The notes: generated from the sequence alone by a model not told the origin. DNA of 64,000 nt from Ignavibacteriaceae bacterium (GCA_963667005.1 OY762937.1:1689279-1753278), one strand, 5' to 3'; positions 20,213 to 40,509 are shown, counted from the stretch's first letter. Translations and numbers: made by a program.

Positions 20213-23200
20213 ATGAGAAAATGGTTCACTTTGGTTGCTGTTATTTGTGCTTTTACACTTACAGGAAGTGTTTACGCACAGTTCACAGCTACCTGGCCTC
20301 TTGATGCAAGTGCAGCAAAAGTGCCGACAGTTACTGGTGCACAGTCAACTACAGTTGCCGCACTACAAATGGTTCCCGGAACAAATTTTGCCAGCGGAAC
20401 CCACAATTCAGATGGTTTCCAATGTGCTTACACAACAACCTGGCCTACGACTCCAACCGACGGCCTTAATTTGGACTTTCCACTTTCACCTGATGCAAGT
20501 AGCCACATGACCATTACCGGTTTGACCATGACGGTAAAGATCTCCGGCAGCAGCAACAGCCAAGCTTTGTCGTTGGCTTATCAGGTTGACGGTGCGGGAG
20601 CTTGGACAACAATTGGAAGTGCACAATCCGTTCCGAGCGGTGGAACTTCAAATGTAACGTTCGGATCGCTTTCGCAATATTTTTCTAATGGGCATAGCTA
20701 TGTAGTCCGTTTGTACGTTTATGCAGGTGCCGCATCAATATCTGCAAGCAGAAAAGTATATATAAAGAACGTTGCGTTTACCGGAACAACAACGAATGCC
20801 AATGTTCCTTCAATATTTTTGTCAACTCTTTCTTTGCCGTCATTTGGAACACTAGTTGCCGGTTCAACATCCAGTTCCCAATCTTACACGGTAAGCGGCT
20901 CAAGACTTACAGACAATGTTGTAGTTACTGCACAAACACCGTTTCAGGTAAGTTTGGATAATACAACCTTTACGAGCAGTGTCACTTTAGCCAGAACCGA
21001 TACAACCAACCTTGCATCTACCACAGTATACGTGAGATTCAGCCCGGCAACAGCGGGTGGAAATCTCTCCGGTTCTATTACACATACTAGCGCGGGAGCC
21101 GGTACAAAAACCTTGGCGGTATCCGGTACTGCAATATCAGTTGAGCCGACTTTACAATCATCTCTGACCGTCGGCACCATTACCGGTACATCAGTTCAAC
21201 TTATCATCACTCCCGGTGACGGTAAAAACAGAATAATAACCGCGTGTGAAAACGCTGTTCCGACCTGGACACCGACCGATGGAAAAAGCTTGACCGGAGT
21301 TGATTCAAATTTCTCAGCCGCTACCAACCAAGGTTCGGCAACAAGAGTTGTATTCAACTTACCGGATTCTGTTTCAAGAAGCGTAACGGTTACCGGATTA
21401 CAGGTTGCTACTAAATATAATTTTGCAGTTTTTGAATATAATGGCAATAGCGGAACTGAAAATTATCTGCTTGCTTCACCGGGCTTTGCAGCTGCAACAA
21501 CATTAACCGTTCCGGGATTAAGCGTATCAACCGCTGCACTCTCATTCGGTAATGTTGTAATCGGTTCTGCTCCTGTTGAAAAATCTCTCACCGTTTCAGG
21601 TAAATTCCTTGAACCGGCTGATGGCTCTATCAATCTTACTTCAACTGGCAACTTCCAGATATCCACAACTTCGGGCAGCGGATTCAGCCAGTCATTAAGT
21701 ATTCCATACACCGGGGCAACGCTTACTACCATCCCTGTGTACGTTCAGTTCACGGTTGATTCAATAAAAAATTATTACGGTGCAATAACAGTCAGTGGCG
21801 GAAACGCGACAAATGTTTCTGTCAGCCTGAGTGGTTTTGGACGAGACAGTGCCTCAGTTATAGGAAAAGCAATTTATGTCGCTACCGATGGTAATGATGT
21901 TACCGGAACGGGTTCAATTGACAAACCGTATAAGAGTATTCAGGGTGCAGTTCTGAAACTTCAGGCCGGCATGACGCTAGTTCTTCGTGGAGGAACGTAT
22001 GTTAAAGATTCTATCATTGTCAGAGATAAGACTCTTTCAGACGTAACGATCAGAAGCTATCCTGGCGAAAGAGCCGTTATTGATGCTTCAACGAATGGTA
22101 CGGCAGGTATAGACGTTATAGTCTTTTACGGTAATAACAGCAAATTCTACGGCATTGATGTGAATACAGCACCGCATAACGGTATGTGGTTGCTCGGTAA
22201 CAATAATATTGTCGAATTCTGTCGTTTCTATAATTGCGGTGACTCCGGTTTCAAACTTGGCGCTCACCTTGAATCTATTTTCCCGGCAAATAATCAGATT
22301 ATCAACTGTGATGCATTCTGGAATTACGATACCAGAGGCAATGGCGGCAACGCGGATGGTTTTGCGGCTAAATGGAACATCGGAAGTGGTAACAGATTTG
22401 CGCACTGCCGCTCATGGGAAAACTCTGATGACGGATGGGATTTATGGCAGGCAGATAGTACTGTAGTTATGGATAGTTGCTGGTGCTGGCGTAACGGAAA
22501 TTATCATATTAAAAGTGCAGCAGGAAACGGTAACGGATTTAAGATCGGTGGTAAACCGGTTTGTGTACCTCATATCATGAGAAATTGCATTTCTTTTGAT
22601 AACGTTGGTTCCTCAGGCGGTAAAGGATTCGATCAGAATTCTAACTTAGCCGGACATACTATGTTGAACTGCCTGTCATGGGGCAACTCATATCTGGATT
22701 ATAACTTCTATGTCGCTTCCACAAATGGAACGTTGACATGTAAGAACTCTATTCAATATAAAGGAAAAACTTCCCCATACGTAAAATTTGTTGATGGCGT
22801 AGTTCAAAACAACTCATGGGCTGCTTTGAAATTCCAGTCCGGTTATACTTGGGCAGGTGTTACTGTTACCGATGCTGATTTTGTCAGCGTTGATACTTCG
22901 CTTGCCGGAAAACCGCGCAACGAAGATGGTTCAATACCTGTAACTGATTTATATCGCTTAAAAGCAACAAGTGCACTTATTGACAAAGGACAGGATGTTG
23001 GAATTCCGTTCTATGGCAGCGTTCCTGATATCGGACCGTTCGAATATGGATTAGTAAGTGCTGTAAAAGAGTATGAACCGATTGTCGGACCACGCTCATT
23101 CAAAGTTGAACAAAACTATCCCAACCCGTTCAACCCTTCAACGGTTATCAGCTATCAGATACCGAACAGTAGTTATGTAACTTTGAAAGTTTACAACATA

Positions 23201-23356
23201 CTCGGAAAAGAAGTAGCTACTTTGGTTAACGAAGAGAAAGCTTCCGGAATGTACCATGTAACATTTGATGCTTCGCATTTGCCGAGCGGTCTGTACATTT
23301 ACAGTGTTACAGCAGGTAAGTTCAGCCAGGTCAAAAAAATGATGTTAATCAAGTAA
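20213..23356 (+). CDS. Multidomain PL9-like (Pel9A-type beta-helix) pectate lyase, T9SS cargo [gene A]
   Basis: 1047 aa. Domain order:
- signal peptide
- unassigned ~170-aa N-terminal domain (FTATWPL...RKVYIKNVAFTG)
- Ig-like module (SLPSFGTLVAGSTSSSQSYTVSG...)
- Fn3-like module
- second Ig-like module
- beta-helix with N-cap YVATDGNDVTGTGSIDKPYKSIQGAV...RGGTY and motifs NADGFAAK-x-SDDGWDLW-x-GNGFKIGG
- T9SS tail. Confidence 0.8.
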   Translation: MRKWFTLVAVICAFTLTGSVYAQFTATWPLDASAAKVPTVTGAQSTTVAALQMVPGTNFASGTHNSDGFQCAYTTTWPTTPTDGLNLDFPLSPDASSHMTITGLTMTVKISGSSNSQALSLAYQVDGAGAWTTIGSAQSVPSGGTSNVTFGSLSQYFSNGHSYVVRLYVYAGAASISASRKVYIKNVAFTGTTTNANVPSIFLSTLSLPSFGTLVAGSTSSSQSYTVSGSRLTDNVVVTAQTPFQVSLDNTTFTSSVTLARTDTTNLASTTVYVRFSPATAGGNLSGSITHTSAGAGTKTLAVSGTAISVEPTLQSSLTVGTITGTSVQLIITPGDGKNRIITACENAVPTWTPTDGKSLTGVDSNFSAATNQGSATRVVFNLPDSVSRSVTVTGLQVATKYNFAVFEYNGNSGTENYLLASPGFAAATTLTVPGLSVSTAALSFGNVVIGSAPVEKSLTVSGKFLEPADGSINLTSTGNFQISTTSGSGFSQSLSIPYTGATLTTIPVYVQFTVDSIKNYYGAITVSGGNATNVSVSLSGFGRDSASVIGKAIYVATDGNDVTGTGSIDKPYKSIQGAVLKLQAGMTLVLRGGTYVKDSIIVRDKTLSDVTIRSYPGERAVIDASTNGTAGIDVIVFYGNNSKFYGIDVNTAPHNGMWLLGNNNIVEFCRFYNCGDSGFKLGAHLESIFPANNQIINCDAFWNYDTRGNGGNADGFAAKWNIGSGNRFAHCRSWENSDDGWDLWQADSTVVMDSCWCWRNGNYHIKSAAGNGNGFKIGGKPVCVPHIMRNCISFDNVGSSGGKGFDQNSNLAGHTMLNCLSWGNSYLDYNFYVASTNGTLTCKNSIQYKGKTSPYVKFVDGVVQNNSWAALKFQSGYTWAGVTVTDADFVSVDTSLAGKPRNEDGSIPVTDLYRLKATSALIDKGQDVGIPFYGSVPDIGPFEYGLVSAVKEYEPIVGPRSFKVEQNYPNPFNPSTVISYQIPNSSYVTLKVYNILGKEVATLVNEEKASGMYHVTFDASHLPSGLYIYSVTAGKFSQVKKMMLIK

Positions 23357-23377
23357 TACACATCGTGAAAATTAATA

Positions 23378-23412
23378 ATCCCCCGTGCGAGACGATCAAT
23401 CGGGGGGTTTTT
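23378..23412 (+). terminator. Rho-independent terminator
   Basis: CCCCCG...CGGGGG stem followed by TTTTT, 22 nt after the stop. Confidence 0.7.
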
Positions 23413-23518
23413 ATATTGAGAACAAATTCGATAGGATATGCCATAGACACTGATTGATACTGCTTCAACTTGATATTCGATCATCTGCCTTCAATCATAT
23501 CTGTAGCTTTAAATTTCA

Positions 23519-26500
23519 TTGGAGAAAAACGTGAACAAACTGAAATTATTATGCCTTGTTCTGATTCAGTTAATGCTATTCGGGTCTGCCGCACAGGCTC
23601 AATTAGTTGAGGGATTTGAAACAGGGATGCCTACAAGTGCACCTTCAACATTAACAAGCTATACATTAGGCTCGGGTACCTGGTCAATGTATAAATGCAG
23701 TCAGTCGGGTACTAAACACGCGGGTAGTTACGGATGCGCACTTGCTTCCAGTTCAACCGATGCTTCGTACATAATCTCACCGGCTCTCAATACGGTCGGT
23801 ACGATTACATATTGGGCAAAGTCGGGAAGTTCGTCAATTATTACCGTTTATATATCAATAAACGGGGGAGCCTGGACAACTGCGGGGTCATCTTCAACAA
23901 CATCTTCATTTGCATCAAACACAATCACACTTAATGAAACGAGCAACAGTGTACGGGTGAAATTCCAGAACGGACAAGGTACGTCAATGTATCTGGATGA
24001 TGTTACTATTACTCAGGTTACTGCCCCATATGTACGTATTTCTGCTACCAGCCTTCCATCCTTCGGTATGCTGGTTATGGGAAATTCCTCTTCATCATCC
24101 TCATACACAGTAGATGGAGCCAATTTAACAAGCAATTTATATGTTAATGCCCCAAACGGATTTCAGGTAAGTACCGATAATACTAATTTCTATTCTTCAC
24201 TTTCTTTGGCTCCGGCCAGTGGTGTTGTTGCAAGTACGACTATATACGCCCGCTTCTCACCGATAGCGGCGACAGGCGTAACTGCCGGTGCCATCACGAA
24301 TAAAAGTACAGGCGCTACGACGGTTGAGGTGAATGTTGACGGAAAAGCCATTGGCACAGAACCGGCTAAACAATCATCAATCGCAGTAAGTGAAGTAAGC
24401 GGCAATTCGCTTAAGCTAACACTATCGGGTGGTGATGGCGGTAACAGAATTATCATTGCCCGGGCGGGCAGTGCAGTCAACTGGACACCCGCAGATGGTA
24501 CTGACGGCACGGGTATCAATGCATCATTTGCAGCTGCAACTGATCAAGGCAACGGAAATAAAATAGTTTATTCCGGAACTTCTACGTCTGTAACCGTTAG
24601 TGGATTGACGGTAAACAGTCTTTATCATTTCGCGTCGTATGAGTATAACGGTGATGTGTCAAGTTCAGAGAATTACTTGCTTGCAAATCCGGGTCTGGCT
24701 AACGCCACAACACTTACTGTTCCGGGACTTTCAATTTCACCGGTCAGCATCGGATTCGGCAATGTGCTAAAAGATTCACTGTCGAAAGTTAAGTCATTTA
24801 CCATTTCCGGATTGTATCTAAATCCAGCATCCGGGAACATTAATGTTGCTGCAAACGGCGATTTTGAAGTATCCGCTTCCAGCAATGGAGTTTTTAGTAA
24901 GTCTGTTGATGTAGCCTATACATCTTCTGCTTTAACTGCAACCACTTTATATGCCCGTTTCCGGCCGTCTACCGTTGCCGATAATATTACCGGTACTTTA
25001 GTAGTCACTGGTGGGGGAGCTCCGGCTGATACAATAACCGTATACGGTTCAGGCAAGGATTTCTCGAGCTTTATAACCCGCGGTATTTTTTGCGCACCGG
25101 ACGGTAATGATGTAACTGCTGCAGGCACATACGATGATCCATTTTATTCATTGCACAAAGCAGTTGCAAAAGCTGTCCCGGGTGATACCATCTGGATGCA
25201 TGGCGGAACGTATTATTATAATTCTACGGTTATGCTGACAACAGCAGCCACAGCAGCTAAGCCGATTTCAATCATCGCGTATCCGGATGAGAAGCCGGTG
25301 ATGGATTGGTCAAACTGGAAACCGACAACAGAAGCAGTCCGTGGATCTGCACGTGGTATTAAAGTGGATAAATCGGCAAAATATTGGACGCTGAAAAAAC
25401 TTGAGATCTGTTACGCGCCTGATAACGGAGTAAAATGCGAAGGTTCGCATACGACATTTGACCAGTGCATTTTCCATCATAACGGCGATGGCGGTTTGCA
25501 GATTGGATTGGGCAAAGATTCATTATCGGCTAATCCGGATCCGGAAAATTATGCTTCCTACACACGCGTTCTCAACTGCGACGCTTTCGGTAATGCCGAT
25601 CCCGCAACTGATTATGAAAACGCTGATGGATTCTCCTGCAAACTGTACGCAGGCTATGATAATTATTTCTACGGCTGCCGCGCCTGGGGAAATTGCGATG
25701 ATGGCTGGGATTGTTATCAAACGAATTATCAGATAACAATTGAAAATTGCTGGGCTTTCCATAATGGAGATCCTTCGCAATGGGGATTCACTTCTTTTAA
25801 CGGTGATGGTAATGGTTTTAAACTCGGCGGCAACGGTGCACCGTGTCCTATTACTATTAAGAATTGTGTTGCCTTTAATTGCATCTATGGTGCAGTGTGC
25901 TGCTATAACGATAACAATAACGGTAGCGCTGTGACTGTTCTTAATTGCACAGGCTGGGATGGCGGAAAGATATTCAAGTTTCAATCCGAGCCGCACATCT
26001 TGAAAAACTGTGTGGGTTTTGATCCAAAATCAGGTGCGAAATTTGTAACTGATTTTTCCAGCACAGTAGTGTCTGTTAACAACTCATGGGATTTAGCAAT
26101 TGCCGCAGACTACAGCGACTTTATCAGCACCAGTGAGACTGATGCTCTTGCCCCTCGACAAGCAGACGGAAGTTTGCCCAATAACGGATTCGCAAGATTA
26201 AAACCAGGCAGTGCTCTTATCGACAAAGGTGTTGATGTGGGTATCGCATACTTTGGTTCTGCTCCTGATTTGGGCGCTTATGAATTTAATCCAACTGCGG
26301 TTAAAGATGGTAAAACACTCAAACCCGAGACTGTTTCACTAAGCCAGAATTATCCGAACCCGTTTAATCCGTCAACCGTTATCAAATATCAGGTTCCGGT
26401 TACGGGGAATGTCGTACTTAAAGTATATGACATGCTTGGTAAGGAGGTTGCTACACTTGTAAATGATGTAAAATCTGCGGGTGAGTATGAATACCGATTT

Positions 26501-26590
26501 AATGCGGCAAACCTCGCAAGTGGTTTGTACATCTATACTCTTAAATCAGGCAATACTATTCAAACAAAAAAAATGATGCTTCTTAAGTAA
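23519..26590 (+). CDS. Multidomain PL9-like pectate lyase, T9SS cargo [gene B]
   Basis: The track ORF starts at TTG 23519. The in-frame GTG at 23531, 6 nt after GGAG, is the more likely start. The N-terminal domain differs from gene A and looks choice-of-anchor-J/MAM-like (LVEGFETGMPTS...MYLDDVTITQV). It is followed by Ig-Fn3-Ig modules, a beta-helix (ENADGFSCKLYAG...CDDGWDCYQT...GDGNGFKLGG) and the T9SS tail. Confidence 0.8.
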   Translation: MEKNVNKLKLLCLVLIQLMLFGSAAQAQLVEGFETGMPTSAPSTLTSYTLGSGTWSMYKCSQSGTKHAGSYGCALASSSTDASYIISPALNTVGTITYWAKSGSSSIITVYISINGGAWTTAGSSSTTSSFASNTITLNETSNSVRVKFQNGQGTSMYLDDVTITQVTAPYVRISATSLPSFGMLVMGNSSSSSSYTVDGANLTSNLYVNAPNGFQVSTDNTNFYSSLSLAPASGVVASTTIYARFSPIAATGVTAGAITNKSTGATTVEVNVDGKAIGTEPAKQSSIAVSEVSGNSLKLTLSGGDGGNRIIIARAGSAVNWTPADGTDGTGINASFAAATDQGNGNKIVYSGTSTSVTVSGLTVNSLYHFASYEYNGDVSSSENYLLANPGLANATTLTVPGLSISPVSIGFGNVLKDSLSKVKSFTISGLYLNPASGNINVAANGDFEVSASSNGVFSKSVDVAYTSSALTATTLYARFRPSTVADNITGTLVVTGGGAPADTITVYGSGKDFSSFITRGIFCAPDGNDVTAAGTYDDPFYSLHKAVAKAVPGDTIWMHGGTYYYNSTVMLTTAATAAKPISIIAYPDEKPVMDWSNWKPTTEAVRGSARGIKVDKSAKYWTLKKLEICYAPDNGVKCEGSHTTFDQCIFHHNGDGGLQIGLGKDSLSANPDPENYASYTRVLNCDAFGNADPATDYENADGFSCKLYAGYDNYFYGCRAWGNCDDGWDCYQTNYQITIENCWAFHNGDPSQWGFTSFNGDGNGFKLGGNGAPCPITIKNCVAFNCIYGAVCCYNDNNNGSAVTVLNCTGWDGGKIFKFQSEPHILKNCVGFDPKSGAKFVTDFSSTVVSVNNSWDLAIAADYSDFISTSETDALAPRQADGSLPNNGFARLKPGSALIDKGVDVGIAYFGSAPDLGAYEFNPTAVKDGKTLKPETVSLSQNYPNPFNPSTVIKYQVPVTGNVVLKVYDMLGKEVATLVNDVKSAGEYEYRFNAANLASGLYIYTLKSGNTIQTKKMMLLK

Positions 26591-26611
26591 GCAAAATGAA
26601 ATTATATGCAG

Positions 26612-26646
26612 CCGGAGATCGTTCGTCAAGCGTTCTCCGGTTTGCT
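26612..26646 (+). terminator. Probable terminator hairpin
   Basis: CCGGAGA...TCTCCGG stem followed by TTTGCT. It lies inside the first 21 codons of the track ORF 26606, which argues for the later start. Confidence 0.5.
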
Positions 26647-26668
26647 AAATTCAAGTAAGGAACTCAAG

Positions 26669-29600
26669 ATGAGAAAATTTATACCGGTATTTTGTTTTAT
26701 TAGCCTAACACTCCTTCTTACATCAAATACCTTTGCACAATATACAGCCACATGGGCGCTCACCGCTGATAAATCCGTTGCGGTAACCGGAGCTCAGGCA
26801 TCTAATGTTGTGGCTTCCGCCATGATTCCGGGAACTACATTCAGTTCCGGGGCTCATAGTACTGATGGCTTTGCCTGCACAAGTACGGCAAGCTGGCCAA
26901 CCACTGCAACTGATGGCATGTATCTGGATTTTCCTATTTCACCCGATGCATCGAGTAATATTACTGTTACAGGACTTACATTAACAGCAAAAACTTCCGG
27001 AAGCAGCGGCAGCCAGGTTCTTGCACTCATGTATCAGGTTGACGGTACCGGAAGCTGGAATGTTTTAGGTACAGCTCAAGAAGCTGCAGGAGGCGGAACT
27101 TCAAGTATTAACTTCGGAACCCTCGCCGGTACATTCAACAACGGACATACATATGTTGTTCGTATGTATGTTTACGCAAAGGCATCCGGTACAAGTTCAA
27201 GCAGAAAATTATATATAAGGAATGTTGCATTTACCGGCGCAGCTACCAACGCTAATGTTCCGGTCATTACGGTTTCAGCCGCTTCACTAAGCACGTTCGG
27301 TACTTTGACCTCCGGGACTTCATCAACTGCACAATCATATACGGTGTCGGGCAAACGTCTGACTGCCGATGTGACAGTTACGGCATCAAGTCCTTTTCAG
27401 GTGAGCACGGATAACGTCTCGTTTAATTCAACCGCAACATTAACCCAAAGCGGAGGAACTCTTGCTGAGTCTACCGTATATGTTAAATGTGTTCCTGCAA
27501 CAGCCGACGGAAAGATATCCGGTACGATATCCAATGAAAGCACTGGTGCAGTTAAACAAAGTGTTGGTGTTGACGCAACAGTGATTGCTCAGGAGCCGGC
27601 ACAACAGTCGGTCGTGTCGTTTGGAAGCATTACCGGCAGTTCGATTGTTGTTAAGGCAACAGGCGGAAACGGTGCAAAGAGAATAATTATTGCCAGTGCT
27701 GAGAAAGCCGTCAGCTATTTCCCGGTCGATGCAACTGCTGAAGCGGGTGTAAATAGTAACTTCGCTGCTGCTACCGATAAAGGAAACGGTAATAAAGTTG
27801 TATATGACGGAGCGGATACCGTGGTAACCGTGACGGGACTTATTTCCGGGACGACATACTATTTTGCATCCATTGAATATAATATGGGAACAAATAATTC
27901 TCAGAATTATTTAACAACAAATCCCGGAACCGGAAGCATTGCTACATTAACGACACCGGGACTCTCGGTCAGTTCGGCCACCATCAGTTTTGGCGATGTT
28001 ATCTATAACACCATTTCTTCAGAAAAAACTTTTAGCCTGTCGGGTAAATATTTAACACCTTCAGCCGGGAATATCAATGTTACTGCACCTGCCGGCTTTG
28101 ATATTTCTTTGACAACCGGAAGCGGTTTTGATACATCGGTTACTGTTCCTTACACAGCAGGTACGCTAAGCGCGGTTACCGTTTATGTGCGATTCAAACC
28201 GACCGAAAGCAAAGTGTACAGCGGAGTTATTACTATTTCCGGCGGTGGAGCCGATAATGTAACAGTCTCTTTATCAGGTACAGGTTATGAATATGTACCG
28301 TTTGTACCGGGAACAATTTATTGTTCGCCTACCGGTGATGATGCAACAGGCGATGGCTCGCGTTCAAAACCGTATTTCTCGCTTTCAAAAGCAGTAGCTT
28401 TAGCTGTGCCGGGAGATACAATTTATATGCGCGGCGGGACGTACATGTACGGTGCGACGGTTCATCTTTCGGCCAAAGGAACGGCAGCGAAGAGATTTTT
28501 TATTCTGGCATTCCCCGGAGAAAAACCTGTCTTGAATTGGTCAAACTTTAAACCGGCAAGTGAAGATATTCGTTTCTATGCCCGCGGCATTACGGTTGAT
28601 ACCTCTGCGGCATATTGGTATCTGAAAGGTCTTGATCTCTGCTATTCACCGGATAATGGCGTGAAATGCGAAGGCGAGCATACAACATTTGATCAGTGTG
28701 TCTTTCATCATAACGGAGATGGCGGAATTCAGATCGGTTTGAATAAGGATTTGATTTCAGTCAACGCCAATCCTGAACATTGGGCTGCGTATAATGTTGT
28801 TATTAATTGTGACTCATATATGAATGCCGATCCTGCAACAAATTATGAAAATGCAGATGGATTTGCATGTAAGCTTTATGCCGGTAAAGGAAATTTCTTT
28901 TACGGATGCCGCTCATGGAATAATTGCGATGACGGCTGGGATTGTTATCAGACAGAATATGAAGTGCAGTTTGAAAACTGCTGGTCATGGCATAACGGAG
29001 ATCCGGCGATGTGGGGCTTCAGTTCGTTTAACGGTGATGGAAACGGATTCAAACTTGGTGGTGCGAATACTGCCTGCAAAATGACAGTACGTCGTTGTGT
29101 CGCTCTTAATTGCATGTGGGGCGCAACAGGCGGATTTGCCTATAATGATAATACCGACGCGATCACTTTGCTGAACTGCACTGCAATTCATTGCGGCAGA
29201 AGCTACAACATGCAGCAATCAGCGGTAAATATTATTACCAACTGTGCCGACTGGGGAGCTAATCGTCCGGCGCCGAAAGATATTTCATCTTCATCCATTT
29301 GCACGAATTGTACATGGACGCTTGGTATTACCGTAGACACTACAATGTTTACAACTGTAGCCGAATCTGCAGCCGCAGAGCCCCGTCTTGCTGACGGTTC
29401 ATTGCCTACCAAATTCGCACGCCTTGTTTCCGGAAGTGCATTGTTGGATAAGGGCAAAGATATCGGATTTGCATTTACCGGTTCTGCTCCGGATTTAGGT
29501 GCTTATGAGCAAGGTCAAGCTGTACCGACAGTTCCGGATTCAATCTTCCACATTCCGAATTCTACTACCACCAAAGTTGAAGTTGAAGAAAATCTTTCAC

Positions 29601-29869
29601 CAAAGGCAATGACTATTGTCCGCAATTATCCGAACCCTTTCAACCCGGCGACAAAAATTTCATTTACCGTTGCTGAAAGAGGTAGAACAAGTTTGAAGAT
29701 TTTTGATATGCTCGGTCGCGAAGTAACTGAATTATATAACGATATAGCAGATCCTGCACAAAATTACACGATTGATTTTAATGCGGCACATCTTTCCAGC
29801 GGTATTTATTTCAGTGTCGTGCAGACTGCTAATCAGCGTGCAGTATCAAAAATGATTCTGCTTAAGTAA
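26669..29869 (+). CDS. Multidomain PL9-like pectate lyase, T9SS cargo [gene C]
   Basis: The start is set at ATG 26669 (MRKFIPVFCFISLTLLLTSNTFAQ is a good signal peptide). The track start at 26606 overlaps the upstream terminator. Architecture matches gene A (N-domain QYTATWALTADKS...). The catalytic half is very similar to gene E. Confidence 0.8.
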   Translation: MRKFIPVFCFISLTLLLTSNTFAQYTATWALTADKSVAVTGAQASNVVASAMIPGTTFSSGAHSTDGFACTSTASWPTTATDGMYLDFPISPDASSNITVTGLTLTAKTSGSSGSQVLALMYQVDGTGSWNVLGTAQEAAGGGTSSINFGTLAGTFNNGHTYVVRMYVYAKASGTSSSRKLYIRNVAFTGAATNANVPVITVSAASLSTFGTLTSGTSSTAQSYTVSGKRLTADVTVTASSPFQVSTDNVSFNSTATLTQSGGTLAESTVYVKCVPATADGKISGTISNESTGAVKQSVGVDATVIAQEPAQQSVVSFGSITGSSIVVKATGGNGAKRIIIASAEKAVSYFPVDATAEAGVNSNFAAATDKGNGNKVVYDGADTVVTVTGLISGTTYYFASIEYNMGTNNSQNYLTTNPGTGSIATLTTPGLSVSSATISFGDVIYNTISSEKTFSLSGKYLTPSAGNINVTAPAGFDISLTTGSGFDTSVTVPYTAGTLSAVTVYVRFKPTESKVYSGVITISGGGADNVTVSLSGTGYEYVPFVPGTIYCSPTGDDATGDGSRSKPYFSLSKAVALAVPGDTIYMRGGTYMYGATVHLSAKGTAAKRFFILAFPGEKPVLNWSNFKPASEDIRFYARGITVDTSAAYWYLKGLDLCYSPDNGVKCEGEHTTFDQCVFHHNGDGGIQIGLNKDLISVNANPEHWAAYNVVINCDSYMNADPATNYENADGFACKLYAGKGNFFYGCRSWNNCDDGWDCYQTEYEVQFENCWSWHNGDPAMWGFSSFNGDGNGFKLGGANTACKMTVRRCVALNCMWGATGGFAYNDNTDAITLLNCTAIHCGRSYNMQQSAVNIITNCADWGANRPAPKDISSSSICTNCTWTLGITVDTTMFTTVAESAAAEPRLADGSLPTKFARLVSGSALLDKGKDIGFAFTGSAPDLGAYEQGQAVPTVPDSIFHIPNSTTTKVEVEENLSPKAMTIVRNYPNPFNPATKISFTVAERGRTSLKIFDMLGREVTELYNDIADPAQNYTIDFNAAHLSSGIYFSVVQTANQRAVSKMILLK

Positions 29870-29876
29870 TATTTAT

Positions 29877-29919
29877 ACGTTATCATCCTTTCCGGCAGAG
29901 GATGATAACGTGTTTGTTT
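29877..29919 (+). terminator. Rho-independent terminator
   Basis: 12-bp stem ACGTTATCATCC / GGATGATAACGT followed by GTTTGTTT. Confidence 0.65.
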
Positions 29920-29961
29920 ATGCCGAAAGTATAGACAGTACATATTAATAAGGAAAATTTC

Positions 29962-32900
29962 ATGAAACGTTTTTTATCAATGACCTTTTTTATATGCGTT
30001 GTATTGTTTGCGACAAATACATTTGCACAATACACGGCAACATGGGCATTAACTACAGATAAATCCGTAGCGGTGACCGGAGCACAAGCTGCAAGTGTTG
30101 TGGCCTCCGCTATGGTTCCCGGTAGTACCTTCAGTACCGGGACTCACAATACAGACGGCTTTGCCTGCTCATACACTACCAATTGGCCGACAGCTGCCAC
30201 AGAAGGCATGCATCTTGATTTTCCATTATCACCCGATCCCGCGAGCAACCTGACTATTACAGGATTAACAATGCCTGTTAAAATTTCAGGAAGCAGTGGG
30301 AATCAGATGTTCTCACTTGCATATCAGGTAGATGGTGCCGGAGCATGGATTGCATTGGGAACACCCCAATCAGCAACCAGCGGTGGTAGTTCTACGGTGA
30401 ATTTCGGGACATTGAGTGCTTCGTTTGAAAACGGACACACCTACGTTATCCGTATGTATGTTTATGCTGCCGCAACGGGTACTTCCTCAAGCAGAAAAGC
30501 GTATGTTAAAAACGTTGCCTTCAGCGGTACTGTTACAACAGCCAACACTCCGGCAGTCGCGGTTTCAGCAAGTTCGCTAAGTAGTTTTGGCTCAGTCATA
30601 GCAGGTACACCCTCAACTGTGCAAAGCTACACAGTGTCCGGACTCCGGTTAACTGATAATGTCATTGTAACTCCTCCTTCTCCATTCAAAGTTAGCACAG
30701 ATAATGCAACCTTCGTCGACTCACTCGTGTTGGCTCCAGCCAGCGGTGTGGTTGCCGCAACAACAGTCTATGTAAAATTAATTTCAGCTGATGCTGTTGG
30801 TACTGTTGCCGGTTCGATTTCGAACCGGACTGCCGGTGCAATTGCGAAAACTGTTTCCGTTAACGGCACTGTCCTCGCATCCGAACCAGCAACGCAATCT
30901 GTCATATCATTCGGAGAAACAACGGGCAAATCCATTGTCGTAAATATGTCAGGCGGAAACGGAGCGAAGAGGGTGCTTGTTGCTTGTGCAGACAATGCAG
31001 TAAGCTATGTTCCGACTGACGCTGCTACTGAAACAGCTAACAGTAATTATACGGCAGCTACTGATAAAGGAAATGGCAATAAAGTTGTATTTGCAGGAAG
31101 TGATGCCTCGGTGACTGTTACAGGTTTAATATCGGGAAAAACATATTACTTTAGCTGTTTTGAATACAACGATGGAACAAACAATTCACAGAACTATTTG
31201 ACAACTGCTCCCGGGACGGGAAGCAAAATGACCTTGCAGGTTCCCGTTTTATCATCCAATACAGCTTTGCTTGTCTTCGGAAATATTTTATTTAATACTA
31301 TCTCTGCAGAAAAATCTTTCGCTCTTTCAGGAACGTACCTTTCGCCTGCAGAGGGCTCTGTTAAAATTAGTGCACCGGCTGGATTTGAAATTTCAACCAC
31401 CAGCGGTAGTGGTTATGACTCAGTAGCAACGGTTACATATACCGGTAGTACAATTAGTGCTGTCCCGGTGTATGTACGATTTAAACCGACTGAAGCAATC
31501 GCCTATAATGGCAATATAACCCAATCCGGGGGAGGAGCCGATCCATTAACCGTGGCTGTTTCAGGTAAAGGTGTTACGGAATTACCATTCCAGGCTCACT
31601 ACGATTATATTGTTGCAGCCGATGGTTCAGGGGACTTTACGACAATTCAGGCTGCGGTAGATGCAGTACCTGCAAATAACACCAAGTGGGTTGCGATATT
31701 CGTTAAAAAAGGATATTACAATGCACATGTTGCTATCAGTAAAGCCTATGTCGCAATCGTCGGCGAAAATCGCGATAGCACAAGAATAGAAGTTGATTTC
31801 CCGCGTTCAGCATGGTACAGTCAATACGGAACAAATACAGGTTGCGGTGTTGTTAATGTTGCCGCAAACGATTCAATGGTTGTCCTCGCAAACATGACTA
31901 TTATCAATACCAATGCATCTTCTTCGCAAGAATACACTGAAGTATTCCGCAGCGAACCCGGCAGTACAAAATTATGGTTTGTAAACTGTAACATGTATGC
32001 TAATTGGAGTGATACATTTTCTCCATGGGGCAAAGCAAACGGAAGATATTATGTTGCCGATTGTGATTTCCGCGGCGGCATTGACGCCGTTTGTCCACGC
32101 GGCTGGGCATACATGATCAACTGCGGTTTCACCGAATCAAGAGATAGCAGTCCTATTTGGCACGAAGGTGTCGCCGACCTCGGACAAAAATTTGTTATTC
32201 AAAACGGTTCAGTACACAGTACGAAAAACAAATCAATCAAATTGCAAAATGCGCAAGGCTCCTACTCAATGTTCTTTTATCTGGATACGGAAATGTCAGA
32301 TAGTGTTGGCAGCCTTGGTGTAAGTTCACCAACATATTTCTGGAATTGCCACCGTGTTGGTACAACAGGAGACGCTTCATGGTTTTCAACAAATACTTTA
32401 TCAAATTATACTGGATCGCCAACGCATACGGATATTAATGCAGCATGGGTGTTTGGCGGCGCATGGGATCCCGAAAATGAAATGCCTCCGGTATTACAAT
32501 ATGCTTCTTTGCCTCAGCCATTCTTTAAACAATATGATGTTACGGCTACTCCGGAACTCAAATGGATCGGCGCTTGCGGCGCAACCTCCTATAACGTCTA
32601 TTTCGGACTTTCATCCGATCCTGCGTTTGTTGGAAATCAATCAGGAACCAGTTTTTCGCCTGGCACACTCAAATCCGGCAGAACATATTATTGGCGTGTT
32701 GATGCTGTCAATAGCGATGGTGTTATCAAAGGAAAAGTATGGCAATTTACCGTTAACGGCGTTGCCGATGTAAAAGAAGAATCGGGAATTCCCACTAAGT
32801 ATTCATTAAAACAGAATTATCCAAATCCGTTTAATCCGTCAACCTCTATCAAATATCAGGTTCCGGCAAGCGGACAGGTTGAATTAAAAGTTTATGACGT

Positions 32901-33057
32901 ACTTGGTAAAGAAGTCGCAACCTTAGTTAATGCAGTTAGAACTGCCGGAACTTACGAATGTACATTCAACGCTTCAAATCTTCCGAGCGGATTGTATATC
33001 TACTCGCTCAAGGCAGGAGGCAGCACATTAACAAAGAAAATGCTTCTCCTTAAGTAA
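29962..33057 (+). CDS. Multidomain divergent CE8 pectinesterase, T9SS cargo [gene D]
   Basis: 1031 aa. The N-terminal half (unassigned domain, then Ig-Fn3-Ig) is collinear with gene C. A pectinesterase-type domain follows, opening with YIVAADGSGDFTTIQAAVDAVP. A Fn3-like module (YNVYFGLSSDP...YYWRVDAVN) and the T9SS tail complete it. Confidence 0.8.
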   Translation: MKRFLSMTFFICVVLFATNTFAQYTATWALTTDKSVAVTGAQAASVVASAMVPGSTFSTGTHNTDGFACSYTTNWPTAATEGMHLDFPLSPDPASNLTITGLTMPVKISGSSGNQMFSLAYQVDGAGAWIALGTPQSATSGGSSTVNFGTLSASFENGHTYVIRMYVYAAATGTSSSRKAYVKNVAFSGTVTTANTPAVAVSASSLSSFGSVIAGTPSTVQSYTVSGLRLTDNVIVTPPSPFKVSTDNATFVDSLVLAPASGVVAATTVYVKLISADAVGTVAGSISNRTAGAIAKTVSVNGTVLASEPATQSVISFGETTGKSIVVNMSGGNGAKRVLVACADNAVSYVPTDAATETANSNYTAATDKGNGNKVVFAGSDASVTVTGLISGKTYYFSCFEYNDGTNNSQNYLTTAPGTGSKMTLQVPVLSSNTALLVFGNILFNTISAEKSFALSGTYLSPAEGSVKISAPAGFEISTTSGSGYDSVATVTYTGSTISAVPVYVRFKPTEAIAYNGNITQSGGGADPLTVAVSGKGVTELPFQAHYDYIVAADGSGDFTTIQAAVDAVPANNTKWVAIFVKKGYYNAHVAISKAYVAIVGENRDSTRIEVDFPRSAWYSQYGTNTGCGVVNVAANDSMVVLANMTIINTNASSSQEYTEVFRSEPGSTKLWFVNCNMYANWSDTFSPWGKANGRYYVADCDFRGGIDAVCPRGWAYMINCGFTESRDSSPIWHEGVADLGQKFVIQNGSVHSTKNKSIKLQNAQGSYSMFFYLDTEMSDSVGSLGVSSPTYFWNCHRVGTTGDASWFSTNTLSNYTGSPTHTDINAAWVFGGAWDPENEMPPVLQYASLPQPFFKQYDVTATPELKWIGACGATSYNVYFGLSSDPAFVGNQSGTSFSPGTLKSGRTYYWRVDAVNSDGVIKGKVWQFTVNGVADVKEESGIPTKYSLKQNYPNPFNPSTSIKYQVPASGQVELKVYDVLGKEVATLVNAVRTAGTYECTFNASNLPSGLYIYSLKAGGSTLTKKMLLLK

Positions 33058-33100
33058 GATGATGCAATTAATACAAAATAGTAAATAGGGCACACGAGAG

Positions 33101-35338
33101 ATGAGAAAATATATATTAATAATGGCTATTGCCTTGCTTTGCACACAAGCATGGGCTGAACGCCTTGTTTTTCAGGCCGAGAACGGAAAGCGTTCTTCCG
33201 GGACAGTAGATGTGGAATATGCCGGCTACACCGGAACTGGATACTTGAATACCGCTAATGCAACTGGTGAATATGTTGAATTTGAAGTTGGCGTTGCAAA
33301 TGAAGCAGATGATACACTGATATTTGTTTACGCACATAATAAGACAGATAACCGAACTGCATCCGTTACGGTAAATGGAGCCGTTGTTGTTAGTTCATTG
33401 GGTTTCCCCTCGACTGGTGCATGGACTACATGGTTACCTGTAACTGCTATTGTTCATTTAAAAGCCGGAGCAAACACAATTCGATTGACATCTCTTACTT
33501 CAGGTGGATTGGCGAATCTTGACAGGATGGAAGTCGGCGCGGCGGATGGAAGTTTTCAGTTTAAACTTACTACTTCGGTTAGTGGGCACGGAAATATCAC
33601 GGTAGATCCGGTAGGGCCTTACTATTCATTTGGCACATCGGTTAAACTTACTGCAGTACCGGATGCAAATACTACATTTACCGGATGGTCTGGAGATACT
33701 ACATCAACCGATAATCCGGTAACAATTACTATGTCAAAAGATAAGTCTCTGACAGCAATATTCTTCTCTGTTGTCGGCGGAACGAAGTATTGTTCTCCTG
33801 ACGGTGATGATAATAGCGGAGACGGCTCTTTTGCTAAACCGTATTATTCATTATCCAAAGCAGTAGAACTTGTCAGTCCGGGTGATACAATTTTTATGCG
33901 CGGCGGGACATATTATTATACTGCAACGGTACATCTCGCCGCAAAAGGAACACCCACGCAACGCTTTATTTTAATGGCATATCAGAGTGAGAAACCGGTT
34001 TTAAACTACTCAAAGTGGACTCCGGCAAATGAAACTGAGCGCGGTGCTGCAAGAGCTATGAAGGTAGATACTACAGCCGCATATTGGTATGTTAAGGGAT
34101 TGGAAATATGCTACGCGCCTGATAATGGCGTTAAATGCGAGGGCGACCATACAACATTCGACCAGTGCATATTTCATCATAACGGTGATGGCGGAATCCA
34201 GATCGGCTTGAATAAAGATTCGTTCTCTACAAATCCGAATCCCGATCATTGGGCTGCATACAATACTGTTCTTAACTGTGATTCCTATATGAACGCGGAT
34301 CCGGCTACAGATTATGAAAATGCTGATGGATTTGCATGCAAACTTTATGCAGGCAAGGGAAATTTCTTCTATGGCTGCCGTTCCTGGAATAATTGCGATG
34401 ATGGATGGGATTGTTATCAGACTGAATATGAAGTTCAATTTGAAAACTGCTGGGCATGGCATAACGGTGATCCGGCGTTGTGGGGATTCAGCTCGTTTAA
34501 TGGTGATGGAAATGGATTTAAACTCGGCGGTAATGGCACGTATTCGCCAATGACGCTTCGTCGCTGTGTTGCGTTGAATTGCAACTGGGGTGCTTTAGGT
34601 GGATTCGCTTACAATGACAACATAGCACCTATCACTTTGCTAAACTGCACTGCAATTCATTGCGGCAGAAGTTATAACATGCAGCAGACAGCCGCTAATA
34701 TTATGACCAACTGTGCTGACTGGGGTGCCGACCGGCCTGCTCCTAAAGATATTTCTTCAAGCTCTATTTGTACTAACTGTACATGGACGCTGGGAATAAC
34801 GGTTGATACGACAATGTTTGTGACAGTTGCCGAATCAGCAGCGATTGAGTCGCGTCAGGCTGATGGCGCACTACCGACAAGATTTGCAAAATTGGTTTCC
34901 GGAAGCAAACTAATTGATAAAGGAACTTCTGTTGGAATTCCATTTTTAGGTGCTGCTCCTGACCTTGGTGCATATGAATTCGGTCAGGCAGTTCCAACGG
35001 TGCCGGATTCGATTTTCCATATTCCTAATTCGGGTGTTTCTGGAATTGAGATTCAACAAAATCTAACTCCGAATACATTAACGGTAGTGCGGAACTATCC
35101 GAACCCGTTTAATCCAGCAACAAACATTACTTTTAGTGTTGCACAAAAAGGACACGCGACATTAAAGATCTATGACATGGTTGGCCGTGAAGTAGCAGAA
35201 TTATTCAATAATGAAGCTAATCCCAACAGCAAATACACGGTAAATTTTAACGCAGGCAATCTATCGAGTGGTATCTATTTCAGTGTGGTACACTGCGGAA
35301 ACCAGCATGCGGTTAGCAAAATGATATTAATGAAGTAA
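33101..35338 (+). CDS. CBM6/35-like + PL9-like pectate lyase, T9SS cargo [gene E]
   Basis: 745 aa. Domain order:
- signal peptide
- CBM6/35-like module (LVFQAENGKRSSG...TGAWTTW...NLDRMEV)
- InlB-B-repeat-like module (LTAVPDANTTFTGWSGD)
- beta-helix near-identical in long stretches to gene C
- T9SS tail. Confidence 0.8.
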   Translation: MRKYILIMAIALLCTQAWAERLVFQAENGKRSSGTVDVEYAGYTGTGYLNTANATGEYVEFEVGVANEADDTLIFVYAHNKTDNRTASVTVNGAVVVSSLGFPSTGAWTTWLPVTAIVHLKAGANTIRLTSLTSGGLANLDRMEVGAADGSFQFKLTTSVSGHGNITVDPVGPYYSFGTSVKLTAVPDANTTFTGWSGDTTSTDNPVTITMSKDKSLTAIFFSVVGGTKYCSPDGDDNSGDGSFAKPYYSLSKAVELVSPGDTIFMRGGTYYYTATVHLAAKGTPTQRFILMAYQSEKPVLNYSKWTPANETERGAARAMKVDTTAAYWYVKGLEICYAPDNGVKCEGDHTTFDQCIFHHNGDGGIQIGLNKDSFSTNPNPDHWAAYNTVLNCDSYMNADPATDYENADGFACKLYAGKGNFFYGCRSWNNCDDGWDCYQTEYEVQFENCWAWHNGDPALWGFSSFNGDGNGFKLGGNGTYSPMTLRRCVALNCNWGALGGFAYNDNIAPITLLNCTAIHCGRSYNMQQTAANIMTNCADWGADRPAPKDISSSSICTNCTWTLGITVDTTMFVTVAESAAIESRQADGALPTRFAKLVSGSKLIDKGTSVGIPFLGAAPDLGAYEFGQAVPTVPDSIFHIPNSGVSGIEIQQNLTPNTLTVVRNYPNPFNPATNITFSVAQKGHATLKIYDMVGREVAELFNNEANPNSKYTVNFNAGNLSSGIYFSVVHCGNQHAVSKMILMK

Positions 35339-35347
35339 GGATTTATT

Positions 35348-36859
35348 ATGTATAAATGCTCGTTTCTTGTAGTTGCATTTCTTTCAAGCTTCTTGCTTGG
35401 TCAAGCATTATATGTATCACCGACCGGAAGTGATTCAAACCCCGGTACGATTGATTCAGCGCTTGCAACTCCGCAGGCAGCCATGGCAAAGTTATCATCC
35501 GACGGTTCAGGCGCGATGATATGGATTCGCGGCGGTACGTATAAGCTCAGTTCTCAGTTAAAAACGAGTAAGAATGGCGCTGCTGGTAACCTTAATAAAA
35601 TTTGGGCATATCCCGGAGAGAAACCAATATTTGATTTTACGGGATTAAATGATCGCGGCGTCTATTTTAGTAAAAGCTATTGGCACATGAGGGGAATTGA
35701 AGAATGCAACGCAGGCAGTAACGGAATTTGTTTTTCCGGTTGTGGAAATAATATTTTAGAAGGATGTGTCGCGCATGACAACGGTCTGGAAGGTATTAAG
35801 ATCACCGGGTCAAGCAGTAACCTTACTCACGATAATTTGATCCTTAATTGCGATTCATACCGTAACTATGATGCCGCAGGTAATGGCGAAAATGCAGACG
35901 GTTTTGCGGCGAAAACCGGGACCGGCTCGGGGAATGTTTTTAGAGGATGCCGTGCCTGGTATAACTCGGATGACGGCTGGGATTTTTACGAAAATAGCAC
36001 CGGGGGATTGACATTGGATAGCTGCTGGGCCTTCTGGAATGGCGTTAACTTGTGGGGCAATGGTTCTTGGGCGGGTGACGGCGACGGATTTAAGCTCGGT
36101 GGAGCAAAAACGACTTCCGAACATAAATTAACAAATTGTATAGCATTTGACAATATTTTGAGCGGCTTTGCACAAAATCATGCTTACGCAGGACAAACGA
36201 TGATTAACTGCACCAGTTACCGCAATTCGCAAAACACCTTTTCATTTTATGAGGCCGCAACAGCAGGCACTCTCTTGCATCATGTTTTGAAAAACTGTGT
36301 TTCATATGGCGGTAAAGGTGTTACGCTTTACACTTCAACAGAACAAGTTACGAATAGCTGGCAGACTTTAACTTTGACAGATGCTGATTTCGAGAGCCTT
36401 GATACAGCTGGCGTTACAGGTCCGCGTAATGCCGATTATAGCTTACCTAAACTGAAATTCTTACATCTTGCAAAAGGCAGTCAGGCTATCGACAAAGGTA
36501 CAAATGTCGGAATAGCGTTTACCGGATCTGCTCCTGATATGGGCGCTTATGAATATTCCGGGACTACCGGAATTGGCAATGATCTTGCTCATGCAAAAGG
36601 GTTTGTCTTAGGCCAGAACTATCCGAATCCTTTCAATCCGTCAACCATGATTCGATATCAGGTCCCGGTAAGTGGAAATGTTGAATTGAAAGTGTTTGAT
36701 GTGCTGGGTAAAGAAGTTGCAGAGCTGGTGAACGGAATTCAATCAGCAGGCACATATAGCTGCGTATTCAATGCAGCAGCATTGCCGAGCGGATTATATT
36801 TCTATACTCTTAAATCAGGAAGTAATGTTGAGACTAAAAAAATGCTTCTTCTTAAGTAA
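35348..36859 (+). CDS. Minimal PL9-like pectate lyase + T9SS tail [gene F]
   Basis: 503 aa. N-cap LYVSPTGSDSNPGT...IRGGTY, then ENADGFAAK, SDDGWDFYE, GDGDGFKLGG and the T9SS tail. It starts 9 nt after gene E ends. Confidence 0.8.
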   Translation: MYKCSFLVVAFLSSFLLGQALYVSPTGSDSNPGTIDSALATPQAAMAKLSSDGSGAMIWIRGGTYKLSSQLKTSKNGAAGNLNKIWAYPGEKPIFDFTGLNDRGVYFSKSYWHMRGIEECNAGSNGICFSGCGNNILEGCVAHDNGLEGIKITGSSSNLTHDNLILNCDSYRNYDAAGNGENADGFAAKTGTGSGNVFRGCRAWYNSDDGWDFYENSTGGLTLDSCWAFWNGVNLWGNGSWAGDGDGFKLGGAKTTSEHKLTNCIAFDNILSGFAQNHAYAGQTMINCTSYRNSQNTFSFYEAATAGTLLHHVLKNCVSYGGKGVTLYTSTEQVTNSWQTLTLTDADFESLDTAGVTGPRNADYSLPKLKFLHLAKGSQAIDKGTNVGIAFTGSAPDMGAYEYSGTTGIGNDLAHAKGFVLGQNYPNPFNPSTMIRYQVPVSGNVELKVFDVLGKEVAELVNGIQSAGTYSCVFNAAALPSGLYFYTLKSGSNVETKKMLLLK

Positions 36860-40082: not shown

Positions 40083-40251
40083 CAAATACTGCCGGTATAC
40101 GGTGGTTGTGCGGTGTTAGGCTCGAAGAGATAGGATGAGATAGAGTATTAACAAGCAACAGTTGCTTTTATTGCAGATGCATCGGTATGATCGTTAATGT
40201 CGGATACCCATGCAATATTAAACAACTAATTTAATTCAATAGGGAATCTCT

Positions 40252-40509
40252 ATGATACAAAACTATCCGAATCCGTTTAACCCATCAACGGTAATCAGCT
40301 ATCGTTTGTCAAATGATAGCCATGTGATGTTGAAAATTTTTGACGCGCTCGGCAGGGAAATTGCTACCTTGTTAAATGAAAACAAGATGAAAGGCGAGCA
40401 TGAATTTCATCTTGACGCAGGAAATTATAACCTGTCAAGCGGCATATATTTCGTGGAAATGACAGCGGGAACAAATGTTTCAACCATCAAATTAGTATTG
40501 GCAAAATAG
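40252..40509 (+). pseudogene. Stand-alone T9SS C-terminal sorting domain (orphan CTD; gene remnant or mini-ORF)
   Basis: The 85-aa ORF is nothing but a CTD (MIQNYPNPFNPSTVISY...SGIYFVEMTAGTNVSTIKLVLAK). An in-frame TAG sits 9 nt upstream of its ATG. There is no signal peptide or passenger domain. Its stop abuts the next ATG (TAGATG). Confidence 0.6.

Follow-up and report, generated by a model that had tools for sequence, protein, structure and literature searches.

The stretch studied here, 64,000 nucleotides (nt) of the chromosome of an Ignavibacteriaceae bacterium (GCA_963667005.1, OY762937.1:1689279–1753278; called the window, to which coordinates refer unless another source is named), carries a run of pectinase genes on the + strand between 18.5 and 42 kb, and every product of the run ends in a type IX secretion system (T9SS) C-terminal domain (CTD). 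In order, the run comprises a PL1 pectate lyase, five PL9 genes and one CE8 gene (genes A–F), an unassigned CTD protein, a GH88-family hydrolase and a further CTD protein. Each protein of this array is a string of autonomous modules: a signal peptide, targeting or spacer modules, a catalytic beta-helix and a C-terminal sorting domain. Our subject is the mosaic formed by the adjacent genes C, D and E, in which C shares its front half with D and its back half with E. The modules of genes A–F are given below; D′ denotes a second esterase, about 957–979 amino acids (aa) long, which occurs in relatives such as L028 and is without counterpart in this genome.

20213–36859, + strand: genes A–F together, six open reading frames (ORFs)
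20213–23356, + strand: gene A; signal peptide, X domain, Ig-Fn3-Ig-like spacer, PL9 lyase and T9SS CTD (Pfam)
23519–26590, + strand: gene B; signal peptide, a different N-terminal domain (EGFETG... type), Ig-Fn3-Ig-like spacer, PL9 of the B/C/E superclade, CTD
26606/26669–29869, + strand: gene C; X-Ig-Fn3-Ig front, PL9, CTD
26669–28303, + strand: gene C front half; C/D/D′ front family, ~60% aa identity to D
26669–26737, + strand: gene C signal peptide
26738–27250, + strand: gene C X domain
27251–28279, + strand: gene C Ig-Fn3-Ig-like region
28298–28312, + strand: chimera junction in C (residues PFVPG); D-like upstream and E-like downstream, in the linker that joins the second Ig-like module to the beta-helix cap
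28304–29869, + strand: gene C back half; sister to the E back half (76% aa, 72% nt)
28301–29455, + strand: gene C PL9 catalytic beta-helix
29456–29617, + strand: gene C tail
29618–29866, + strand: gene C T9SS CTD
29962–33057, + strand: gene D; CE8 pectinesterase and CTD
29962–30030, + strand: gene D 5′ end (signal peptide); D′-derived, by nt comparison with L028
30028–31566, + strand: gene D front (X domain and Ig-Fn3-Ig-like region); paralogous to the C front
31579–33057, + strand: gene D back; CE8 domain 31579–32571, then an Fn3-like module and a T9SS CTD of B/D/F type
33101–35338, + strand: gene E; signal peptide, CBM6/35, InlB B-repeat, PL9, CTD
33101–33772, + strand: gene E front; signal peptide, CBM6/35 at 33158–33550, InlB B-repeat at 33551–33766
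33773–35338, + strand: gene E back; PL9 beta-helix 33773–34924, then tail and CTD; probable source lineage of the C back half
35348–36859, + strand: gene F; signal peptide, PL9 from a distant clade, CTD most like those of B and D

A, B, C, E and F match the Pel9A-like beta-helix family PF22842 at 47.8–85.2 bits (cut-off 25.2). The back half of C, the only one compared, aligns end to end with Pel9A (1RU4_A; E = 2.3e-41, query 6–385, chain 17–379), its lysine-containing GNGFKLGG motif and the acidic calcium-site motifs ADGF and DDGWD included, and these five proteins are predicted PL9 pectate lyases. Gene D, which matches PF01095 (Pectinesterase) at 60.6 bits over residues 549–728 (cut-off 27), encodes a predicted pectin methylesterase of family CE8. 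The PF18962 (Por_Secre_tail) CTD is present in all six proteins at 38–45 bits (cut-off 27) and ends 3–4 residues before the stop codon. The head of E scores 39.6 bits for CBM_6 (cut-off 28.9) and, just under the cut-off of 28, 27.3 bits for CBM_35. A first-pass annotation, made by a model from the sequence, had proposed domain architectures for the six proteins; its PL9, CE8, CBM6/35, InlB and CTD assignments were recovered with Pfam, whereas its Ig and Fn3 labels correspond to sub-threshold matches only (fn3 at 22.7 bits in A; NDNF Fn3). The X domain is assigned to no family, its sole match being a weak one to CBM_4_9 (E = 0.09).

C and D are 58% identical in aa sequence over C22–613/D1–586 and 64.5% in nt sequence over 26724–28285/30014–31572. 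Their similarity runs from the signal peptide to nt ~28300 in C at ~60% aa identity, and in sliding windows it falls from ~60% to ~20% at C residues ~555–565 and D residues ~535–540. C and E are 75–76% identical in aa sequence over C563–1087/E221–745 and 73% in nt sequence over 28310–29876/33779–35346; the alignment is gapless from C residue 566 and E residue 224 to the stop codons, and some 30-aa windows are 93–100% identical. At the join, C reads GTGYEYVPF-VPG-TIYCSP (nt 28298–28312), no more than about five residues from the linker that connects the second Ig-like module to the catalytic domain. The left part of the join is common to D (GKGVTELPF-QAHYDY), which diverges after PF at nt 31585, and the right part to E (SVVGG-TKYCSP, nt 33776).

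These positions agree with the first-pass annotation, which had the C/D similarity ending near 28280–28320 in C and 31560–31600 in D and long runs shared by C and E beginning near 28320 and 33790. It had also described C and D as aligned without gaps from the signal peptide to past the second Ig module; the extent is right, but the alignment contains two one-residue gaps. All three peptide runs that it quoted as common to C and E are present in both proteins. Its statement that the C/E differences are mostly synonymous is correct by count, since 270 of the 433 nt differences in the block fall at third codon positions and 188 codons differ synonymously only, against 125 that change the residue; synonymous sites are, however, saturated (pS 0.71; dN 0.17), so that the excess is no sign of recency.

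Phylogenies built per domain give the front and the back of C different nearest relatives, each one a neighbouring gene. The PL9 tree, built from 47 domains, pairs C with E as sisters (100/100), followed by homologs from Verrucomicrobiota and from 'Bacillota' metagenome-assembled genomes (MAGs) and then by B, with A and F far away. In the tree of the Ig-Fn3-Ig front, C groups with D (98/94) and the pair with A (91/94), and B lies elsewhere; A, grouped here with the C and D fronts, has its PL9 in a distant clade beside G0_1640751. Approximately unbiased (AU) tests reject an A+C+E clade on the PL9 alignment (p = 3.8e-5) and a B+C+D clade on the front alignment (p = 0.025). In an enlarged back-half tree with 31 tips, a single clade for the backs of all proteins with an Ig-Fn3-Ig front is likewise rejected (p = 2.6e-9), and at least 8 changes of N-terminal architecture are needed. 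Because the per-domain trees are incongruent with support and the AU tests reject shared groupings, recombination at domain linkers within a tandem family, as proposed in the first-pass annotation, holds as an explanation; modules are also rearranged at the same locus in relatives, as described below.

An account without recombination would have one ancestral architecture whose modules diverged at very different rates, giving a false mosaic. Modules do evolve at unequal rates: between the two congeners the C front is 70–80% and the C back 94–95% identical. The account is nevertheless already refuted by the domain identities, because the CE8 domain in the back of D and the CBM6-InlB head in the front of E belong to Pfam families absent from the corresponding parts of C. 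The identity steps are moreover abrupt, from ~60% to ~20% within ~10 residues, and the AU tests reject the shared topologies that it implies; we give it practically no credence and keep to linker recombination in what follows.

The distribution of architectures bears on the direction of the exchange. A database search with E found full-length CBM6-InlB-PL9-CTD (E-type) proteins down to 49–60% identity, together with many Verrucomicrobia proteins in which Ig repeats precede CBM6-InlB-PL9; C-type proteins (~1065 aa) were found only among the closest relatives. In the back-half tree, E-type proteins stand on every major branch, the base of the B clade included (P0017, P0019), and C-type proteins form one shallow clade. 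Phylogeny of the CBM6-InlB heads agrees broadly with that of the back halves. From this wide distribution and from the agreement of the head and back trees, we infer that the E architecture is ancestral and vertically co-inherited, and that C is a derived chimera. Other fronts are read as further independent replacements: the B-type front on B and P0039, a LamG-like front on the 'Bacillota' MAG proteins, and no front on one relative's copy.

With the direction reversed, the ancestor would have been C-like (X-Ig-Fn3-Ig-PL9-CTD) and E a duplicate of C that was given a CBM6-InlB front, for example from the paralog at genome position 1942585. This CBM6-InlB-PL9 paralog elsewhere in the genome is a possible donor, and B, the next PL9 relative within the genome, also has an Ig-Fn3-Ig front. 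Yet such a history is hard to square with E-type proteins on every major branch of the B/C/E superclade and C-type proteins in a single shallow one, or with a head tree that follows the back tree and puts the head of E nearest to other superclade heads, not to the 1942585 paralog. We consider it improbable.

Homologs of the C/E/B PL9 superclade, at 55–67% identity, occur in Verrucomicrobiota and Bacillota-labelled MAGs (L002–L005; P0015–P0047). They carry other heads, either Ig repeats with CBM6-InlB or a LamG-like module with a Pro/Thr linker, and no T9SS CTD. The pattern indicates a probable transfer of the superclade between phyla, with exchange of export and targeting modules. Cross-phylum transfer of this kind makes it conceivable that C was imported ready-made as a chimera and landed beside its relatives by chance, and the differing histories of the front and back of C orthologs among species (see below) would fit such an event. 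Import is very improbable all the same: in every genome with C the nearest relatives of both of its halves are genes of the same array, and no C-type protein lies outside the clade among 949 matches. Assembly of C within the array is the reading that we prefer. We consider it very likely that the locus is a tandem set of T9SS cargo genes for extracellular pectin breakdown, enlarged by tandem duplication and by recombination in inter-module linkers, and that C is a duplicate of the E lineage with a front of D/D′ type.

The congener G001 (= L001) has the same six genes in the same order and with the same architectures. Ortholog aa identities between the two genomes are 91% for A, 88% for B, 83% for C, 90% for D, 92% for E and 87% for F, with dS of 1.3–2.0. 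Within-genome and between-genome identities of C and E are equal (C0–E0, 76.1% aa; C0–E1, 76.6% aa), and C/D behaves alike; there has thus been no concerted evolution since the congener split, and post-speciation conversion between C and E or between C and D in this genome was ruled out on the same grounds. Since synonymous divergence is saturated, the C/E block is old and has been kept by selection. Both halves of C have been under purifying selection since its origin (dN/dS about 0.04–0.1). The shuffling is ancient: it predates the split from the congener and is not ongoing among C, D and E in this genome, and the C chimera predates the divergence of at least six related lineages.

The first-pass annotation had warned that nearly identical ~1.5-kb repeats were an assembly hazard, and had allowed that C, D and E might be a chimeric assembly. 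Neither concern is borne out. The blocks are only 64–73% identical in nt sequence (64.5% for C/D, 72–73% for C/E) and therefore pose no assembly hazard; uninterrupted identity extends over no more than 29 nt between C and E and 14 nt between C and D. Recurrence of the C architecture in at least 5 independent assemblies (G001, L028, the ENA contig, P0007 and P0013; 72–97% identical by region) excludes a chimeric assembly. One could still suspect contigs misjoined across the repeats, in a genome that is one contig of unstated sequencing technology, but the chance is vanishingly small when the same junction and architecture are seen in those five assemblies, when the supposed repeats have no identical tract longer than 29 bases in common, and when the reading frame is intact and under purifying selection. 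The region is trustworthy as assembled. Because both halves of C are under purifying selection, C, D and E appear to be distinct functional enzymes and not recent repeats, and they are to be annotated as three distinct enzymes.

Gene order and content vary at the locus among relatives. The order is B-C-D′-D-E-F-G-GH88 in L028, B-D′-D-Cshort-E-F in L025 and A-B-D′-E-C-D-GH88 on the ENA contig (sample ERZ1426827; 29,392 bp); the more distant L027 has a front-less CE8-CTD gene and two tandem E-type genes. Cshort of L025, a signal peptide-PL9-CTD protein of 551 aa, is an independent duplicate, because it is sister to E of its own genome (92/90). D′ of L028 (3911–6784) carries the canonical CE8 motifs QDTYY and DFIFG.

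Comparison of positions 29962–30040 with L028 3871–4311 and 6822–7262 revealed a switch in relationship near the 5′ end of D. Here and in G001, the opening ~70 nt of D, together with the sequence immediately upstream, are 84–90% identical in nt sequence to D′ of L028 and 54–62% to D of L028; from about +80 nt the preference reverses, with 88–92% identity to L028 D versus 70–80% to D′. The C–D spacer, 92 nt long in this genome and 314 nt in the congener, matches in G001 the C–D′ spacer of L028. D is thus a D′/D hybrid whose switch lies in the QYTATWA stretch, and D′ was probably deleted in this genome and its congener, as a ~3-kb segment, by homologous recombination at that stretch, which is conserved.

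Other changes appear to be later than the origin of C. In the ENA relative, the tails and CTDs of C and E are 86% identical, compared with 62–70% elsewhere, which by this comparison is a lineage-specific conversion. Between two congeners the C front is 67–80% and the C back 91–98% identical, and the C front of this genome (26738–28279) is 89–94% identical to the front of a third species, L028. C-ortholog trees take the form ((G000,L028),(G001,P0013)) for the front and (((G000,L028),G001),P0013) for the back, and the front and back alignments each reject the other's grouping (AU p = 0.001 and 0.004). The low congener identity of the front against the high identity of the back is accounted for by these differing histories, and the conflict suggests that a further exchange took place later near this junction, or that the front evolved much faster.

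The CTDs of B, D and F (the last ~85 codons; also those of D′ in relatives) are mutually 70–74% identical, as opposed to ~60% with other CTDs of the genome and ~37–40% with those of C and E, a pattern that departs from the catalytic-domain tree. The B/D/F-type CTD is a candidate for a third exchanged cassette. Conversion between the CTDs of D and F after speciation was considered and rejected: the BLAST identities of 72% within and 59% between genomes were an artefact of alignment length, and over common columns the values are 59 and 58%.

In the history that we propose, the array would have grown by tandem duplication followed by recombination in short inter-module linkers. A gene of the E lineage, whose CBM6-InlB-PL9-CTD architecture is old and widespread, would have been duplicated to give the precursor of C. 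The CBM6-InlB head of the duplicate would then have been replaced by the X-Ig-Fn3-Ig front used by the esterases D and D′, with the new head joined in the linker just before the beta-helix cap. Recombination would have been illegitimate between unrelated partners, as at the C junction, and homologous between paralogs, as in the deletion of D′; the latter, a D′ × D event right after the signal peptide, would have left D with a D′-derived 5′ end. A front-less copy of the E back half would have been made in one relative, and the C and E tails homogenised in another. The pay-off, at the cell surface, would be a different head redirecting the same lyase, and one head serving both a lyase and an esterase.

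Several points weigh against this account. Synonymous saturation has erased any nt trace of the original join, such as microhomology, and for that reason the mechanism (illegitimate or unequal recombination at linkers, with homologous deletion for D′) is one that we infer. No single unequal crossover yields the order C-D-E of this genome. The donor of the C front may be D or D′: C+D survives the AU test (p = 0.38), and the grouping of D′ with C is weak (80/77). The groups compared in the AU tests on C orthologs were chosen with the trees already in view. The suspected CTD exchange is based on identity only, and an 84-column CTD tree leaves the grouping without support. A one-step unequal crossover was considered as the origin of C and not adopted; among the gene orders, E-C-D in the ENA relative is the only one to suit it, and C-D-E of this genome does not.

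A wider proposal, which we put forward tentatively and think rather unlikely, is that QYTATWA at the signal-peptide cleavage site and the linker between the second Ig-like module and the catalytic domain are recurrent recombination hinges, re-pairing promoter-signal-peptide units, fronts and backs within and between species of this Ignavibacteriaceae clade. If it were true, the fast-diverging C front (70–80% identity, versus 94–95% for the back) would be a diversifying surface-recognition module.

The X-Ig-Fn3-Ig front family is also fused to PL1 domains elsewhere in the host genome. Its occurrence as a portable unit on PL9, PL1 and CE8 catalytic domains makes it a candidate for biochemical characterisation. 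A second pectinase array in the same genome, outside the window (C1:812669–826023), uses the same module vocabulary; its contents include PL9 genes with B-type fronts, a PL1 gene with an X front and plain PL9-CTD genes, and it is also kept in the congener (L009). Some 17 PL9 genes are spread over several tandem groups of the genome, and CE8 domains beyond that of D occur, for example, in a giant ORF at 59197–63999+.

The host chromosome is complete, a single contig of 3.92 Mb with 41.4% GC, and its closest public relative is an Ignavibacteriaceae MAG chromosome. SprA, the translocon subject of model TIGR04189 and the T9SS component searched, was detected at 1030 bits summed over a 2322-aa open frame. 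Housekeeping genes (leuS, serS, proS, dnaJ, hrcA and RNase R) flank the pectinase run. An ORF at 40243–40509 encodes an 85-aa protein consisting of a T9SS CTD only; an 85-aa gene is called at the same position in L025, L028 and the ENA contig, and the ORF is a conserved feature, not a stump unique to this genome. Promoter and terminator scans gave no excess of matches over shuffled sequence except for one strong hairpin after C, the sole strong terminator-like site within the array. The literature on Ignavibacteria pectinases or T9SS yielded nothing specific to this locus. Two further features complete the list.

18512–19834, + strand: PL1 pectate lyase
29875–29913, + strand: terminator-like hairpin, a 17-bp stem with a T-rich tract behind it, immediately downstream of the C stop codon (consensus scan only)

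Among known systems, the PL9 modules recall Pel9A (PelL) of Dickeya, the founding PL9 structure (PDB 1RU4), with which the C back half aligns over its whole length. Pel9A differs in being a single-domain enzyme secreted by a type II system; the array proteins have targeting or spacer modules at the N-terminus and a sorting domain for the T9SS. With the T9SS type A cargo of Bacteroidota (Por_Secre_tail/TIGR04183) the array has in common that all six proteins end in a CTD and that SprA is encoded; the host, however, belongs to the Ignavibacteriota. The array CTDs divide, suggestively, into two types (C/E and B/D/F) that are at odds with the catalytic-domain tree. Ectopic gene conversion between tandem paralogs has a counterpart in the ENA contig, whose C and E tails show a pattern like it, and there is no such homogenisation in this genome.

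It is well known that modular genes for carbohydrate-active enzymes (CAZymes) share and exchange modules with their neighbours, and the glucan degradation locus (GDL) of Caldicellulosiruptor is the classic case. The origin of its tandem multimodular cellulases, CelA–CelF, has been proposed as 'gene recombination after duplication', and its repeats are near-identical in DNA and disturb genetic manipulation (PMC7142884). As in our array, adjacent genes for secreted plant-cell-wall enzymes share some modules (CBM3 and GH in CelA–CelF) and differ in others, and related species show new module combinations. The features expected of a GDL-type locus are found here: shared modules, incongruent module trees, breakpoints in linkers and architectures that vary among relatives. 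The two loci differ in age, the shared blocks of this array being 64–73% identical in nt sequence with saturated synonymous sites and the GDL repeats recent. They differ also in their products, which are T9SS-exported pectinases (PL9, CE8 and PL1) in a member of the Ignavibacteriota and Gram-positive cellulases with Pro/Thr linkers in the GDL.

No general concept is changed by the finding. Its value is as a dated, breakpoint-resolved case of secreted plant-polymer enzymes gaining new pairings of targeting and catalytic modules, in a little-studied lineage and with enzymes that are T9SS cargo. Five related genomes supply intermediate states, and such series are rarer than module shuffling itself. 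Set beside the GDL, the array shows the ordinary shuffling of CAZyme modules; what is unusual is how complete the comparative series is.

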